DNA of 25,110 nt from a virus (Duplodnaviria; Caudoviricetes). The notes under the pieces are model-generated. The model made no database searches. It was not told the origin of the DNA and worked only from the letters and a program-made list of their open reading frames with translations. The translations under genes and the position numbers were made by a program. The stretch covers positions 1 to 25,110 of the IMG/VR virus record IMGVR_UViG_3300029919_000026, one strand, 5' to 3'. Shown here piece after piece: positions 6,692-20,108 of this stretch (positions are counted from its first letter, which is position 1; every line of letters starts with the position of its first letter).

Positions 6692-6697
6692 TTCATG

Positions 6698-6760
6698 ATG
6701 ATAACTACAGTTTGCATTAAATGCAATCCTAGGTTCACAAAATATCCGCTAACCTTGGTT
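6698..6760 (-). promoter_or_regulatory. pR-like promoter with OR-like operators
   Basis: Minus strand TTGCAT(6726-6721)-17 bp-TATCAT(6703-6698); AAC-N4-GTT-type sites at 6703-6712, 6726-6735 (imperfect) and 6751-6760. Confidence 0.7.
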
Positions 6761-9800: not shown

Positions 9801-9871
9801 AAACACTCAATAACGGGCCACTTCCTCGGCCCGTCAGTCCCCTGCCCTAATTTCCACTACTGTGATTTGAA

Positions 9872-9931
9872 CACCCAGGTTTCCATTCAATGCAAACTTA
9901 AGTTGACACCATGCGAACCAAGGTTTACATT
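9872..9931 (+). promoter_or_regulatory. pL-like sigma70 promoter with OL-like operators
   Basis: TTGACA(9903-9908)-17 bp-TACATT(9926-9931); AACTTAAGTT (9895-9904) and AACCAAGGTT (9916-9925) share the AAC-N4-GTT motif seen at OR. Confidence 0.85.
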
Positions 9932-10954: not shown

Positions 10955-11428
10955 ATGCAAATAGCAACCCTGGAATGTGGCGACGTGAAGTTGTCCGCCC
11001 CGCTACACCGGATTGAAAAACTAATCGCCAGCTTGTTCGCCGAGCCGGCGGTCACCGAGGTTCGGACGGTAATCGGCGTGCTGCTGCACGAGGGCGAGGA
11101 TTATGCGGGCCTGGTGTTTGATGCCGAGACTGGCGAGCCGTCGCACCACTTGATTCTCCTACCCGGCGAGTTTAAAGGCGGATGGCAGCAGGCACTGGAC
11201 TGGGCAGCATCGATCGGTGGGGAGCTGCCGACGCGTCAGGAGCAGTCATTCCTGTTCGCCCAGCTCAAGCGCCTGTTCTCCGGCGACTGGCACTGGTCTT
11301 GCGCGCAGTGCTCGAGCGGCGTCGCCTGGGCGCAGTACTTCCGCGGCGGCACCCAGCACGGCGTCTTCAAGGTCACCAGCAGTCGTGCTCGAGCCGTCCG
11401 CAGAGTCGCCTATTCATCTATTCAGTAA
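10955..11428 (+). CDS. DUF1566/CLec-fold DGR-target-like protein (distal target 3)
   Basis: AGGAG RBS; WQQALDWA..ELPTRQE..WHWS..AWAQYF..G..RARAVRR C-terminus colinear with the TR-encoded peptide. Confidence 0.8.
   Translation: MQIATLECGDVKLSAPLHRIEKLIASLFAEPAVTEVRTVIGVLLHEGEDYAGLVFDAETGEPSHHLILLPGEFKGGWQQALDWAASIGGELPTRQEQSFLFAQLKRLFSGDWHWSCAQCSSGVAWAQYFRGGTQHGVFKVTSSRARAVRRVAYSSIQ
11303..11404 (+). repeat. Orphan variable-repeat-like segment (VR3)
   Basis: 34 codons align without gaps to the TR (about 57/102 identical; 25 mismatches at TR A, 20 at non-A by hand count); identical 3' end GCCGTCCGCAGA. Confidence 0.65.
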
Positions 11429-11431
11429 TTT

Positions 11432-11450
11432 AACCCGGCATCGCCGGGTT
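11432..11450 (+). other. Post-VR hairpin (DGR target-recognition-type and/or terminator)
   Basis: AACCCGGC-ATC-GCCGGGTT; same stem as 17696-17715 and likewise preceded by ATTT. Confidence 0.7.
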
Positions 11451-12540: not shown

Positions 12541-13164
12541 ATGAAGGTCTACCAGGCCATTGCCGCGGTGGCGGCAGAAATGGCACAACAAGGCATCAGT
12601 AAAGACGGGCGGAATGCGGCGCAGGGATTTAGTTTCCGGGGCATAGACTCAGTGTACAACGCGCTGGCACCGATTCTCGCAAAGCACTTGCTATGCATCC
12701 TCCCTCGTTGCATCGAAAGAACAGTGGTCGAGCGCACGAACGCGAAAGGAACGGCGCTATTCTATGTGACCGTGCACGCCGAATTTGACCTGGTCAGCGC
12801 GGAGGACGGCAGTAAGCACACCGTCGCCATGTACGGCGAGGCGATGGACAGCGGCGACAAGGCCACCAGCAAGGCGATGAGTGCTGCCTACAAATATGCA
12901 GCATTCCAGACCTTCTGCATTCCGACTGAGGAAACGGCAGTGGATGCGGACAGCGAATCACACGAAGTACGAACGCGCAAATCGTCGGCGCAAGTCGCTC
13001 TTGAGGCAGATCTGGACGCGGTGGGTGCAGACAAAGCCAAATTCCTTACGTTGGCCACTAGCGTCGGCTGGAACCTCCCGACCCTCGACGGCATGGCAGA
13101 TGCCCCTGACTGGTATGCATGGGCATCCGAACAAATCAGCATCAAAAGGAAGAAGGTAGCTTAG
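12541..13164 (+). CDS. ERF-family single-strand annealing recombinase
   Basis: GISKDGRN..QGFSFRGIDSVYNAL..GEAMDSGDKATSKAMSAAYKYA..FCIPTE. Confidence 0.85.
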   Translation: MKVYQAIAAVAAEMAQQGISKDGRNAAQGFSFRGIDSVYNALAPILAKHLLCILPRCIERTVVERTNAKGTALFYVTVHAEFDLVSAEDGSKHTVAMYGEAMDSGDKATSKAMSAAYKYAAFQTFCIPTEETAVDADSESHEVRTRKSSAQVALEADLDAVGADKAKFLTLATSVGWNLPTLDGMADAPDWYAWASEQISIKRKKVA

Positions 13165-13662
13165 ATGGCATCCGTCAATAAAGTGATTCTGGTTGGCAAT
13201 CTCGGCAAAGACCCTGAAATGCGCTACATGCCTAGCGGAGAGGCCATTGCCACCCTGTCGATCGCTACCACCGATTCCTGGATGGACAAGGCCTCGGGCC
13301 AACGTCAGGAAAGCACCGAATGGCACCGCGTGGTGCTCTTCGGTAAAACCGCCGAAGTGGCCTCGCAGTACCTGAAAAAGGGTTCGCAAGTCTACATCGA
13401 GGGTTCGATCAAGACGCGCAAATGGCAGGATAAAGAAACCGGCCAAGACCGTTTCAGCACCGAAATCCGCGGCGACCGCATGCAAATGCTCGGCGGCAAG
13501 GGTGGGAGCGATAGCCAGGACGACCGTGCGCCAGCCAGTAGCGCACCGCCGTCTTCGCCCCGGCGCAAGGCGCCCGCGCCGCAGGTGATGAATGACATTG
13601 ACGATGACATTCCGTTCGCACGAATTGGGCTTGAAAACCGCACAATCATTCACTGCATTTAA
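13165..13662 (+). CDS. ssb: Single-stranded DNA-binding protein
   Basis: [46 protein letters not shown]. Confidence 0.95.
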
Positions 13663-13674
13663 CCGGGACTCATC

Positions 13675-14352
13675 ATGGCACAAATCGCACGTATCTTTGA
13701 CGTTGAAACCACCGGCCACATCGACAAGAAAACCGGTGCCCTACCAGATGTGATCGAGTCCGCGTGGTTGGAATTGGACGCGCCGCCGGTCTGTGGCGTT
13801 ATCGATCAGTTCGAGCAGCGCTATAAGCCAACCAAGCCGATCAACCTGGGCGCGCTGGCCACACATCACATCCACCCTGATGACCTAGTTGATTGCCCGG
13901 CGCACACGAATTTCGCGCTGCCGGCGACCGACTATCTGATCGGCCACAACGTCGATGGTTTCGACTGGATCGTCATTGGCAAACCGCCAGTCAAGTTGAT
14001 CGACACACTCGCTCTGGCGCGCATGGTATGGCCGGCACTCGACAGTCACACGCAAAGCGCCCTGCTGTATCACCTCAAGGGAAAGGCGGCGCGCGAACAG
14101 CTGCGCAATGCGCACAGCGCCCTGGCTGATATCTGGATCTGCCGCGAAATCCTGCTGGCGCTGATGAACGACCTCAAGGCGACGAGCTGGCAGGAGCTGC
14201 ACGAACTGTCCGAACGCGCGCTGATTCCGACTGTGATGCCATTCGGTAAGCATCAAGGGGTGCCGCTTGCGCAAGTGCCGTCCGATTACAGGCGCTGGCT
14301 GCTCAACCAACCCGACATTGACCCACGGCTCCGCGCCGCGCTCACCAAATAA
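13675..14352 (+). CDS. Exonuclease X-like DEDDh 3'-5' exonuclease
   Basis: FDVETTG, GHNVDGFD, AHSALAD motifs; C-terminal MPFGKHQG domain. Confidence 0.9.
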   Translation: MAQIARIFDVETTGHIDKKTGALPDVIESAWLELDAPPVCGVIDQFEQRYKPTKPINLGALATHHIHPDDLVDCPAHTNFALPATDYLIGHNVDGFDWIVIGKPPVKLIDTLALARMVWPALDSHTQSALLYHLKGKAAREQLRNAHSALADIWICREILLALMNDLKATSWQELHELSERALIPTVMPFGKHQGVPLAQVPSDYRRWLLNQPDIDPRLRAALTK

Positions 14353-15493: not shown

Positions 15494-15703
15494 ATGAAAA
15501 CCAAAACCCAAACCATCGACCCACGCACTCTGCGCCGCCAACTCGGGCTGTCCCAATCCGACTTTTGGGATCAGCTCGGTGTCACGCAATCAGGTGGCTC
15601 GCGCTATGAAAGTGGCCGCGCCATGCCGAAGCCGGTGCGCAAGCTTCTCGGCGCCATCTACCTGGGCGAAACCGTTAATCCTTACCATCGCGAGGCCGCG
15701 TGA
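15494..15703 (+). CDS. Small HTH protein (RsaL-like)
   Basis: LRRQLGLSQSDFWDQLGVTQSGGSRYESGRAMPKPV. Confidence 0.8.
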   Translation: MKTKTQTIDPRTLRRQLGLSQSDFWDQLGVTQSGGSRYESGRAMPKPVRKLLGAIYLGETVNPYHREAA

Positions 15704-16602
15704 TGTGGTTTAAGCAACTATCGTTTTACAAGCTGCCCGACACGATCGGGCGCAACGAACTGGCCGAGCGGCTTGAAAAGCAGCCGTTCACACCATGCAT
15801 GGGCCTCGGCTGGTTCAGTGAAGGCTGGCAGACGCCGGCCAGTCACGTCGACGGCCCGGTGTTCGCCGCGCGCGATTGCCTATTGGTATCGCTCAAGCGC
15901 GAGGACAAAGTGTTGCCGCCCGCAGTGATCAACAAGAAGCGCGATGAGGTGGCCGCTGAGATCGAGCGGCGCGAAGGGTGCAAGCTCGGGCGCAAGGCAA
16001 GACAGGCCCTTAAAGAACAGATCGCCGACGCTTTGCTGCCCAAGGCATTCACCCGGGACAGTCGCAAAGTTGGCTACATCGACAACCGCCGCGGTTGGCT
16101 GATGGTCGACACGGCGACGTCAAGCAAGGCCGAAGCACTGGTCAGCAAGTTGCGCGAGGCGCTTCCGCCCTTCCCGGCGGCCCTGCCGCGCACAAAACTG
16201 GCGCCGCACACCGCGATGACCGACTGGCTGGCCGCGGGCGAAGCGCCGGAAGGCTTCGAACTTGATTCAGATGTTGAGCTGCGCGACCCCGGCGAAAACG
16301 GCATGGTGATCAACGCCAAGCGCGCCGACCTGACCGCCGACGAGATCCGCCAACATATCGCCACCGGCAAGCAGGTGACACGCCTAGGTCTGATCTGGAA
16401 AGAGCGCGTGCGCTTTGTGCTGACTGACACGCTGCAGCTCAAGCGCATCCAGTTTCTCGACGTCTTGCAGGACGAGGCAAGTCAAGCTGGTGACGACAGC
16501 GCCAGCCTGTTCGAGGCCACCTTCACCCTGATGAGCGAGGAGCTTGGAGAGCTGGTTGAAGCCCTGATCGAGGCCCTGGGTGGTCTGGAGGCAACTGGTT
16601 GA
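15700..16602 (+). CDS. rdgC: Recombination-associated protein RdgC
   Basis: MWFKQLSFY..EDKVLPPAVI..LLPKAF..GKQVTRLGLIW..LIEALGG; 300 aa. Confidence 0.92.
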   Translation: MMWFKQLSFYKLPDTIGRNELAERLEKQPFTPCMGLGWFSEGWQTPASHVDGPVFAARDCLLVSLKREDKVLPPAVINKKRDEVAAEIERREGCKLGRKARQALKEQIADALLPKAFTRDSRKVGYIDNRRGWLMVDTATSSKAEALVSKLREALPPFPAALPRTKLAPHTAMTDWLAAGEAPEGFELDSDVELRDPGENGMVINAKRADLTADEIRQHIATGKQVTRLGLIWKERVRFVLTDTLQLKRIQFLDVLQDEASQAGDDSASLFEATFTLMSEELGELVEALIEALGGLEATG

Positions 16603-16980: not shown

Positions 16981-17032
16981 TGAACTGCACCCCAAAATTT
17001 GGACACCGATCCAACCTTTGGGGTGCAGTTCA
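16981..17032. mobile_element. 52-bp miniature inverted-repeat element resembling IS3-family ends
   Basis: TGAACTGCACCCCAAA..TTTGGGGTGCAGTTCA (16-bp perfect IR, 24 bp with 3 mismatches, TG...CA ends), nested in the GCCCGCT/AGCGGGC-T6 hairpin. Confidence 0.55.
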
Positions 17033-17068: not shown

Positions 17069-17680
17069 ATGATCAAGATTCAAGACGTAGCAGTTAGCGA
17101 GCTGCCGAAATCCATCGGTGAAGCATTCCAGGGCGGCTTTCTTGGCCGCCGCTACAAAGTGGATGGCGAAGAGTACGCCGTCATCGTTGCCGGTAAGGAT
17201 GGCCGACTGCGCGGCACGTGGGGCGAGTATGGACAGGACGTCGTCGGGGCACGCAGCTGCATTAACGGCGCTACGAACACCGATGCAATGGCCGAAGCCG
17301 GCAGCGACGCAGCCAAGGAAGCCCGCGCACTGCGCCTCGGCGGGTTCGACGACTGGCACGTCCCGTCACGCGATCAGCTCGAAATGATCTACCGCGACTT
17401 CAAGCCGACCGCCGACGAGAACTATTGCACCTACCGCGACGGCGACAACCCGACGACGGGCGAATACCCCTACACGCCGGACAGCCCCGCGCAGACCACT
17501 ATCGCCGCGTTCCAAGAGGGTGGCGAACATGCCATTGAGCCCGGCTGCTACATGTCCAGTACGCAGTACAGCCCTAACGACGCATACGGTCAGAGCGTCG
17601 GTGATGGCAGCACTTGCGGCATCATCAAGGACGGCGAGGTGCGCGCGCTGGCCGTCCGCACGATTCACATCGTCCATTAA
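17069..17680 (+). CDS. DGR target protein 1 (DUF1566/CLec-like)
   Basis: 3' end carries VR1; GGFDDWHVPSRDQLE, YMSSTQYS..VRALAVR motifs. Confidence 0.9.
   Translation: MIKIQDVAVSELPKSIGEAFQGGFLGRRYKVDGEEYAVIVAGKDGRLRGTWGEYGQDVVGARSCINGATNTDAMAEAGSDAAKEARALRLGGFDDWHVPSRDQLEMIYRDFKPTADENYCTYRDGDNPTTGEYPYTPDSPAQTTIAAFQEGGEHAIEPGCYMSSTQYSPNDAYGQSVGDGSTCGIIKDGEVRALAVRTIHIVH
17561..17660 (+). repeat. DGR variable repeat VR1
   Basis: 100 nt vs TR: 14 mismatches, 13 at TR adenines (10 A>G, 3 A>T) and one T>G. Confidence 0.95.
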
Positions 17681-17695
17681 GCCATTTTTCAATTT

Positions 17696-17715
17696 AACCC
17701 GGCGCCAGCCGGGTT
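17696..17715 (+). other. Post-VR1 hairpin
   Basis: AACCCGGC-GCCA-GCCGGGTT, about 35 nt after the VR. Confidence 0.75.
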
Positions 17716-17733: not shown

Positions 17734-18345
17734 ATGATGGGATCGAAAATTGAGCTGTCCATCAAGCAATTGCTTATCAAAGGCGACTTGGTCATCAACT
17801 TCCCGGCTCGTTCCGCGGAGATAATCGAGGCACACATCGGTCAAGCGGCCGAGTTTGCGATGCCACTGAGCCGCACTCCGTTTCCTGGAGAACTTTGGCC
17901 GGGCCAAGGTGGCAGAAATGCCGGGCTGATCGTTCCCGGCGACGGCTCCAGGCCGTATTACGTGATCGCGGCAGAGCATCCCGATGGCCAGATCGCAGAA
18001 ATTGTGTGGGGCGGTTACGGCAAAGACGAACCCGGAGCAAAAAGTCACTGGGACGGTATGGCCAACACGAAAGCGCTGGTTGAGTCGGAATACGATCATC
18101 CGGCAGCAGAATGGGCCTACGGCCTCAATATCGACGGGTATAGCGACTTCTACCTCCCGGCACGGCGGGAGCTGGCGCTGGTCGAAATCAACCTGGCCGC
18201 TCGACTCCCGAAGGGCTGGCACCACACCAGTACGCAGTACGGCCCTAGCTACGCATACGTACAGTACTTCGATGATGGCAGCACTTACAGCATCAACAAG
18301 GACTGCGAGGTGCGCGCGCTGGCCGTCCGCAGATTGTTTATTTAG
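17734..18345 (+). CDS. DGR target protein 2 (DUF1566/CLec-like), paralogue of target 1
   Basis: 3' end carries VR2; DGMANTKAL..GYSDFYLPARREL..STQYG..VRALAVRR. Confidence 0.9.
   Translation: MMGSKIELSIKQLLIKGDLVINFPARSAEIIEAHIGQAAEFAMPLSRTPFPGELWPGQGGRNAGLIVPGDGSRPYYVIAAEHPDGQIAEIVWGGYGKDEPGAKSHWDGMANTKALVESEYDHPAAEWAYGLNIDGYSDFYLPARRELALVEINLAARLPKGWHHTSTQYGPSYAYVQYFDDGSTYSINKDCEVRALAVRRLFI
18232..18335 (+). repeat. DGR variable repeat VR2
   Basis: 104 nt vs TR: 10 mismatches, all at TR adenines (5 A>G, 5 A>T). Confidence 0.97.
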
Positions 18346-18390: not shown

Positions 18391-18747
18391 ATGGCACTCC
18401 ATTCCAGCCTACCGATTTACAAGGACGTTTACGCGCTGACGATGCTCGTTGCTAATCTCGTCAGTAATATCCCTCGCAAGCACAAACGCCGGGGCGACAA
18501 GCTTGATGACGAATGCTCAGAGTTAATGACCCTGGTCTTTCGCGCCAATGTCGCGCGCAACAAAGTGCCCTATCTGAGCGATCTGGTTGAGCGCGTTGAA
18601 TCGCTGAACTTCATGTTCAGGCTTTGCTGTGATCTAAAAATTATCAGCGAGCGGCAGTACGCCCAGGGCGTCGCGCTTCTCGGCGGTATTGGGCGGCAGG
18701 CCAACGGCTGGAAAAGGAAGTATGAGTCCGCATCGCCAGCTGCATGA
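18391..18747 (+). CDS. avd: DGR accessory variability determinant (four-helix-bundle protein)
   Basis: 118 aa basic helical protein, LPIYKDVY..IPRKHK..RLCCDLKIIS..IGRQANGWKR, located between the targets and the TR. Confidence 0.85.
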   Translation: MALHSSLPIYKDVYALTMLVANLVSNIPRKHKRRGDKLDDECSELMTLVFRANVARNKVPYLSDLVERVESLNFMFRLCCDLKIISERQYAQGVALLGGIGRQANGWKRKYESASPAA

Positions 18748-18913: not shown

Positions 18914-19017
18914 ACGCAGTACAGCCCTAACAACGCATACGAACAGAACTTCGATGATGGCAACACTAACAACATCAACAAGGACAACGAGGTGCGCGCG
19001 CTGGCCGTCCGCAGATT
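18914..19017 (+). repeat. DGR template repeat (TR)
   Basis: AAC-rich (8 AAC codons, 33 A in the first 99 nt), between avd and RT; matches VR1 and VR2 almost everywhere except at its adenines. Confidence 0.97.
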
Positions 19018-19022
19018 CATCA

Positions 19023-20108
19023 ATGCCAGCTTTTTCGGATCTGGTCGAGGATTATTTCGATTGCCGTCGCGCGAAGCGCAACAGCAAATCCGCACTGGCC
19101 TTCGAGATCGATCTCGAACAGAACCTGCTGGAGCTTTACGACGAACTGATCGAGGGCCGCTATCATCCGGGCCGCTCGATCTGTTTCGTCATTACCCGGC
19201 CAAAGCCCAGAGAGGTTTGGGCGGCAGAATTCCGGGATCGAATCGTGCACCACCTACTTTACAACCGTGTTTCCGATCGCTTTCACCGCGGATTCATTGC
19301 GGATTCCTGCGCCTGTATCCCCGGGCGCGGGACGCTATATGCAGCAGAAAGGCTTGAGCATCACGTCAGGTCAATAACGCAGAACTGGAGCCGTCCAGCC
19401 TGGTATATCAAGATGGATTTGTCGAATTTCTTTGTATCGATCGACAAGCACCAGGTGCGCGCGCAATTGGCGAAACGTATCCACGAACCGTGGTGGATGG
19501 CCCTGGCCGACCTGATTCTGTTTCACGACCCGCGTACTGATTTCGAGATGCGCGGCGATCCGGCGCTGATTGATCGCGTACCGGCACACAAGCGGCTGGT
19601 CAACGCTGATGAGCATCACGGTCTGCCAATCGGCAACCTCAGCAGCCAGTTCTTCGCCAACGTGCTACTGGACTCGCTCGACCAGCACATCAAGCACCGC
19701 GTCGGCGCTCGGTATTATTGCCGATATGTGGATGATTTCGTGCTGCTGCATGAGGACGCGAGCTGGCTCACGGCGGCGCGGGCGCAGATCGAAACGAAAC
19801 TGGCCGAGCTCGGGCTGCAGCTCAACCCGAGGAAAACTTTCATTCAGCCGGTGGCGCGCGGCATCGATATGGTCGGCCAGGTCATCAAGCCTTGGTCACG
19901 TACCACACGGCGCCGGACGTACCGCCAGGCGATACGACGAGTGGTCGACATCGATGAGGGCGATCTATTCGAAACAGCCAATAGTTATTTCGGATTGCTT
20001 GGCCAAGCCACCAGCAGCCATCACGACCGCTGCCGACTGGCGAACGCACTGCGACGGCGCGGTCAGTCGATAAGCATGGACATCAGAAAGACCTACCGAA
20101 AACCATAG
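19023..20108 (+). CDS. DGR reverse transcriptase
   Basis: 361 aa; KPREVWAAEFRDRIVHH, KMDLSNFFVSI, GLPIGNLSSQFFAN (DGR-type IGxxxSQ), RYVDDF; no visible frameshift; start taken at ATG 19023. Confidence 0.95.
   Translation: MPAFSDLVEDYFDCRRAKRNSKSALAFEIDLEQNLLELYDELIEGRYHPGRSICFVITRPKPREVWAAEFRDRIVHHLLYNRVSDRFHRGFIADSCACIPGRGTLYAAERLEHHVRSITQNWSRPAWYIKMDLSNFFVSIDKHQVRAQLAKRIHEPWWMALADLILFHDPRTDFEMRGDPALIDRVPAHKRLVNADEHHGLPIGNLSSQFFANVLLDSLDQHIKHRVGARYYCRYVDDFVLLHEDASWLTAARAQIETKLAELGLQLNPRKTFIQPVARGIDMVGQVIKPWSRTTRRRTYRQAIRRVVDIDEGDLFETANSYFGLLGQATSSHHDRCRLANALRRRGQSISMDIRKTYRKP

Follow-up and report, generated by a model that had tools for sequence, protein, structure and literature searches.

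A distal DGR target whose VR fits the template of an alternative cassette in a sister phage genotype

A short gene, T3, in the early region of a phage resembling temperate phages carries a VR whose first 75 nt differ at adenines only from the template repeat of a DGR cassette (cassette B) that occupies, in a sister genotype, the slot held downstream of T3 by another cassette (cassette A). T3 is a DGR target that was probably stranded when recombination in rdgC joined the left arm bearing it to the arm carrying cassette A. The evidence comes from the fit of the VR to the two templates, from the alleles of T3, from a fork between the two genotypes inside rdgC, and from the behavior of distal targets in related phages.

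Gene order and the resident cassette

The window (the whole stretch of DNA analyzed, a virus record of 25,110 nt) resembles the early region of a temperate phage, with repressor-like HTH genes, ERF, SSB, exonuclease, rdgC, a DNA methylase and the start of an integrase that is complete in the related sequence L095. The closest named relatives of its proteins belong to Chromobacterium, Pseudogulbenkiania, Pseudomonas and Burkholderiales. A full DGR, cassette A, lies inside the window and consists of two adjacent targets (T1 and T2), avd, the template TR-A and a reverse transcriptase (RT) (Table 1). VR1 of T1 and VR2 of T2 both fit TR-A, with two and no non-A mismatches, respectively, over the last 78 nt, and alleles of both genes vary in the VR. 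In one T1 allele, P0124, the stop codon is read through into the hairpin, adding 19 residues.

Table 1. Positions of the features discussed (window coordinates, except for TR-B)
Feature	Position	Strand	Evidence or remark
T3, distal Lcl/DUF1566-like target gene, 157 aa	10955..11428	+	ORF; phrog_4245 E 6e-6; PF07603 in many homologues
VR3 nt 1-75	11303..11377	+	fits TR-B at adenines only
VR3 nt 76-90	11378..11392	+	fits neither TR-A nor TR-B nor any template examined
IMH-like 3' end of VR3, common to both templates	11393..11404	+	12/12 identical to TR-A; one adenine change vs TR-B
GC-rich hairpin after T3, also terminator-like	11432..11450	+	8-bp stem, 3-nt loop
ERF annealing protein, SSB and exonuclease genes, between T3 and cassette	12541..14352	+	PF04404, PF00929, PF00436
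rdgC	15700..16602	+	PF04381; genotypes A and B identical through 16178, differ from 16179
T1, adjacent target of cassette A	17069..17680	+	PF07603 E 1e-5; VR1 17561-17662; hairpin 17696-17715
T2, adjacent target of cassette A	17734..18345	+	PF07603 E 7e-4; VR2 18232-18333
avd of cassette A	18391..18747	+	PF22296, phrog_3206
TR-A, local template repeat	18914..19015	+	AAC-rich repeat, avd on one side, RT on the other
DGR reverse transcriptase A	19023..20108	+	PF00078, phrog_1423; frame intact; YVDD motif; 80% identity to RT-B
TR-B, template repeat of cassette B	L086:2032-2133		

Two inverted repeats were noted in this region. A 52-nt element (window 16981-17032; L095:10239-10290) lies directly upstream of T1, and in L095 a 98% identical copy stands immediately 5' of a two-ORF transposase (HTH + rve), which we take to be IS3-like, beyond the integrase. 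The element upstream of T1 has the appearance of a solitary insertion-sequence end and might be a promoter source for cassette A. A 48-nt inverted repeat (75%; window 6694-6741 and 9866-9913) bounds a 3.1-kb immunity-region block holding HTH, ORF6N and small toxin-antitoxin-like genes, and its right arm overlaps a sigma-70-like promoter (9903-9931) pointing towards T3. The stretch L095:9990-10075, 3' of the integrase, reads by eye like the 3' half of a tRNA gene and is a possible attachment site; ARAGORN reported no full tRNA there.

The T3 gene

The ORF of 157 aa given for T3 in the preliminary description is present. It lies 5.6 kb upstream of the first adjacent target, with VR3 7.6 kb from TR-A. 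phrog_4245 is matched by T3 and also by T1, T2 and the target of cassette B (target B); T3 itself has no Pfam match at E 0.01, its allele P0002 matches PF07603 weakly (E 0.012), and a profile matches PDB entry 8q4e, HbP1 (E 4e-8). T3 is lectin-like and may have a C-type lectin fold around the VR. The term paralogue, used for this gene in that description, applies in a loose sense only, with identities of 27% to T1, 25% to T2 and 39% to target B. T3 has the IMH-like 3' end and the downstream hairpin of a DGR target, the loop departing from the BPP-1 consensus. This hairpin had been called the same as that following VR1: the 8-bp stem is indeed identical, but the loop has 3 nt instead of 4 nt (z -3.4). 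The tail of T3 past the VR (VAYSSIQ, 3-nt loop) resembles that of target B (VVYSAL, 3-nt loop). Since T3 encodes a short Lcl/DUF1566-like protein among early genes, its partner would be likelier to be a cytoplasmic host or phage molecule than a tail receptor.

VR3 and the local template

The alignment of VR3 (11303-11404) with TR-A from which the question arose holds: it is gap-free over 34 codons with the shared ending GCCGTCCGCAGA, and all eight AAC codons of TR-A are NNC in VR3 (GGC, GTC, TAC, ACC, CAC, GGC, TTC and ACC). C occupies the third position in just 34% of the 116 T3 codons upstream of the VR, which gives p about 1.6e-4 for eight out of eight. Mismatches at non-A bases of the template, estimated earlier at about 20, number exactly 20 in 102 nt, in addition to 25 at A; they amount to 11 of 43 non-A positions in nt 1-75 and to nine in nt 76-90. 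TR-A shares with VR3 its last 12 nt and elsewhere no exact block longer than 6 nt. With these 20 non-A mismatches, and with eight residues in both other T3 alleles that adenine changes in TR-A cannot reach, T3 does not qualify as a non-adjacent target of cassette A.

A fitting template in the sister genotype

A degenerate pattern built on VR3 recovered L086, where the corresponding slot between rdgC and the DNA methylase is occupied by cassette B, which has a single target; the order is rdgC, target, avd, TR, RT, DNA methylase. Cassettes A and B each comprise an intact RT with YVDD, Avd, an AAC-rich TR and a matching adjacent target with variants.

Over VR3 nt 1-75, TR-B shows no mismatch at its 45 non-A positions, while 20 of its 30 adenines are changed. 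Among 53 distinct family TRs the next-best fit to this stretch has 6 non-A mismatches and the median is 15; six further TRs that were correctly anchored have at least 7 (in the same check two TRs were mis-anchored and four loci gave no TR). The diagnostic part of the fit is nt 9-30, where few other TRs fit, the center of the repeat being near-universal in the family. A template differing from VR3 only at adenines had been predicted, and TR-B is such a template over nt 1-75: the predicted 5' part occurs in it exactly, but the predicted 3' part (CGTGCTCGAGCC) is absent from TR-B and was found in no TR. The earlier suggestion that a cassette had been replaced is thereby favored, as TR-B sits in an alternative cassette at the same slot of a sister genotype.

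The 3' part of VR3 behaves differently. Nt 76-102 mismatch TR-B at 7 of 22 non-A positions, so that present-day TR-B did not write the window allele in one full event. Within nt 76-90 TR-B has 7 non-A mismatches and the best family TR 5, and none among about 60 templates fits this stretch. Exact scans of viral contigs for the VR3 3' end returned only T3 itself and one chance match in an unrelated ORF, and no TR; a scan of genome contigs gave a single match, of 29 aa and spurious. T3 can probably be assigned to cassette B as a non-adjacent target on adenine-only differences from TR-B in nt 1-75, the exception being nt 76-90 of the window allele.

Alleles of T3

A homologue search found the window T3 protein on 41 contigs, along with P0002, which is 89% identical, and P0121, a member of P0002's cluster. 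The three proteins are identical at residues 1-118 and 147-157; their differences are confined to the VR, which excludes a static, drifted paralogue. At the protein level, all 34 VR codons of P0002 and P0121 can be derived from TR-B by adenine changes, as against 26 of 34 from TR-A, and the median number of unreachable residues was 10 in the 119 homologues tested. The 12 differences between P0002 and P0121 all fall in TR-B codons that contain an adenine, with none outside the VR. Neither of these two alleles fits TR-A, whereas alternative alleles of T1 and T2 do so with 0-3 exceptions each. Scans of viral and metagenome sequences for the DNA of P0002 and P0121 yielded the window allele alone. 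A chimeric origin of these alleles from T3 and target B is unlikely, as no 15-mer is shared and the VRs of P0002 and P0121 are different from those of the two known target-B alleles.

The alleles also differ in how the VR ends: P0002 and P0121 read G-Y/C-C-A-V-A-V-R-R, the window allele reads S-S-R-A-R-A-V-R-R, and TR-A encodes E-V-R-A-L-A-V-R-R. Since R-A-R-A-V-R-R is also the ending of the family consensus and of P0003, the syntenic orthologue, the comparison suggests that the end of the window allele is the older state and that P0002 and P0121 are later, fully converted forms. The invariance of T3 over its 41 contigs was rejected as a sign of freezing, T1 and T2 being equally invariant over about 40 contigs, and these contigs are probably not independent samples. 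In a syntenic phage (L006:10001-15916), T3 has an orthologue (66% identical) at the corresponding position and rdgC is followed by a T1-like gene; the record ends before the TR, and neither the L001 nor the L006 record extends to an RT.

Two genotypes that fork inside rdgC

Between 1384 and 16178, L001 and the window show no mismatch; over the next 1,123 nt L001 is identical to L086 instead, its first mismatch to the window falling at 16179. L086 begins 126 identical bases before this fork point. The A arm is present in L095, a product of the assembly that also gave L001, and is 100% identical there from 16054 on. The assembly forks inside rdgC, and both arms leave the same left arm. Beyond the fork, arms A and B are 67-88% alike to more than 22 kb, which indicates an exchange larger than the cassette alone. 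T3, as the window allele, and cassette B are joined in L001, though this may reflect the assembler's choice of path, given that L095 of the same assembly holds the A arm.

Proteins of cassette A are found on about 40 contigs, Avd-B on 22, and target B on 18, with 2 more carrying a VR variant. B-specific sequence is present beside A in all four runs examined, which are not independent, perhaps belonging to one campaign and perhaps including the source of the window. In runs X12 and X13 there is a 30-nt overlap between a B contig and the contig of the shared left arm, and depth, a rough guide, was 20 for the B arm and 163 for the shared left arm (X12), and 17 and 126 (X13); B is the minority arm in all four runs. 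In X16, contigs break at L001:9926 and 10013, corresponding to VR3 nt 7 and nt 94; these are the extreme positions at which an allele written by TR-B would differ from the window's, and no 15-mer shared with other VRs or TRs that could cause this break was found. No VR3 variant was seen in X11, X12, X13 and X18, where one contig spans VR3 and contigs drop rare variants. The RNA runs X19 and X20 gave short pieces only and no evidence of expression.

A third related phage, phage C (L091-L093), is present in the same runs. At L093:10391-12028 it has a T1-like and a T2-like gene followed by avd aa 1-56 fused to RT aa 307-361, the TR and most of the RT being deleted. Its VR2 has 2 non-A mismatches to TR-A in 67 positions, in a gene whose body is 72% identical; among family pairs at 70-80% RT nucleotide identity, 10 of 410 have templates within 2 mismatches. 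VR1 of phage C fits no template examined (at least 16 mismatches), and its avd head is nearer Avd-B (74%) than Avd-A (61%). Phage C shows that DGR parts have been reshuffled repeatedly among these phages. The fit of its VR2 is a hint of writing in trans by TR-A, but is compatible with plain recombination too.

Distal targets among relatives

A base rate was obtained from 62 loci with avd and TR, taken from the best 80 of 96 viral matches and excluding L035, which was mis-anchored, L062, where no TR was found, and every locus whose fetched span lacked avd. Of 20 distinct distal VRs, each over 2 kb away from its TR, 19 match that TR with no more than 3 non-A mismatches and T3 is the exception; nearer VRs did so in 117 of 117 cases. 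These figures were obtained with a profile built from matching VRs, which very old orphans can escape. Phage C, outside this set of loci with a TR, adds one more orphan. A distal target at the place of T3 is normal, given these 19 of 20 and the fitting distal target of phage Magia described below; the misfit is the point that needs explanation. Two observations were made on the relatives themselves. In L072:6477-11333, all three VRs depart from the TR at the same two non-A bases (nt 85-86), as if the TR had changed after the last rewriting. VRs with small indels relative to their own TR occur at L034:9839, L064:9818, L067:10602, L051:3853 and L057:1831, and three of these shift the frame of the target's end.

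Origin of the window allele

The data presented above have led us to propose a model in which, in B genomes, RT-B and Avd-B would make cDNA from TR-B RNA, introducing errors at adenines, and this cDNA would replace the VR in both target B and T3. The left arm bearing T3 would have come to lie ahead of cassette A through recombination in rdgC, and in A genomes TR-A would write T1 and T2, and T3 rarely or never, leaving T3 frozen in genotype A. TR-A would be expected to write T3 poorly, because the blocks shared outside the 3' 12 nt are at most 6 nt long and BPP-1 needs upstream identity of at least 8 bp, 19 or more working better (accessible text of PMC3240598). The window allele would be frozen and would go back either to TR-B in an earlier form or to an older VR of which TR-B overwrote only the 5' part; each would account for the 15 nt that match neither template.

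A more far-reaching account, possible though doubtful, is that co-occurring prophages pool their DGR templates. T3 would have passed from an older template to TR-B by overwriting up to the IMH, so that the window allele would be half-converted, and the phage C target would have been written in trans by TR-A.

It is unlikely that the trans action is ongoing, with related prophages sharing cells, intact cassettes rewriting compatible targets, and TR-B still rewriting the T3 of genotype A. The presence of A and B together in all four runs examined is consistent with this, as is phage C, which has lost the TR and most of the RT and still has a VR2 with 2 non-A mismatches to TR-A in 67 positions, and avd, TR and RT supplied in trans work in BPP-1, as described in the portions available of PMC3240598 and PMC5758913. 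However, A and B share a left arm with the immunity region and would be expected to exclude each other, B is everywhere the minority arm, no case of a TR-B-type T3 allele linked to the A arm was found, and the phage C fit may stem from a past exchange of VR or TR by recombination.

Stranding by recombination in rdgC also has to be weighed against a third, unsampled template related to TR-B, with the same 5' 75 nt and another 3' end, that would still be in the host or community and would have written the whole window allele; we consider this improbable. One template would cover all 102 nt, and VR3 shares with TR-B the motif GTGCT (nt 83-87), which occurs in 6 of 52 family TRs. Against it, the exact 3'-end scans gave T3 and one chance match, none of the roughly 60 templates fits, and both remaining T3 alleles are of the TR-B type throughout. 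Phage C was rejected as the donor of such a template, as it has no TR.

Finally, a remote TR-A target with much non-canonical mutagenesis, or a drifted static paralogue, can be dismissed as very improbable: non-A changes do occur in DGRs, up to 11 in one surveyed target (accessible text of PMC5758913), and the last 12 nt of VR3 and the hairpin stem are common with the cassette A targets, but 20 non-A mismatches to TR-A stand against a perfect TR-B fit over 75 nt, neither alternative T3 allele fits TR-A as those of T1 and T2 do, and drift is excluded by alleles that differ inside the VR only.

Implications

Here a single phage gene is followed by either of two DGR cassettes, and each of its alleles keeps a record of the template that wrote it. 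This indicates that cassettes move between phages as modules and that a distal target can be left without its template. The donor template, the recipient gene and alleles of both states are in hand as a natural case, in which the TR-VR match that a new template needs for takeover, and the overwriting of a mismatched IMH-proximal stretch, can be tested. Surveys that demand an adenine-only fit to the local TR overlook targets like T3.

Comparison with known systems

Non-adjacent DUF1566 targets and phage mosaicism are already known; the case here is a misfit distal target whose donor template has been identified in a co-occurring sister genotype. The exchange of a DGR cassette under a shared target was found described nowhere in the literature searched, which was without most subscription papers and survey supplementary tables, and is absent from the accessible text of PMC5758913, PMC8144416, PMC6642488, PMC12875486, PMC8705816 and 10.1101/2024.11.15.621889. 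According to the available text of Wu et al. 2018 (PMC5758913), non-adjacent targets lie within 50 kb in the same prophage and accompany 45 of 372 DGRs, and short DUF1566-only targets (category d) are common. As that text describes, those targets were assigned only on adenine differences from the local TR, a rule under which a target like T3 would have been missed.

The T3 system and the BPP-1 DGR, as described in the accessible text of PMC3240598, share the avd-TR-RT organization, adenine-specific changes, an IMH-like 3' end and a GC-rich hairpin after the target. They differ in that the loop of the T3 hairpin has 3 nt, in contrast to the 4-nt GRNA consensus of BPP-1, and in that BPP-1 diversifies a tail-fibre protein, whereas the small targets here sit among early recombination genes. 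The Burkholderia phage Magia (MT701587), whose RT is 63% identical to the RT here, has the same layout, with a short lectin-fold target near the immunity region followed by recombination genes, two short targets, avd, TR and RT; its genes 47 and 57 have been named as possible targets (accessible text of PMC7883833). All three Magia VRs fit their own TR, with no non-A mismatches over the last 78 nt, whereas T3 fits the TR of the other cassette.
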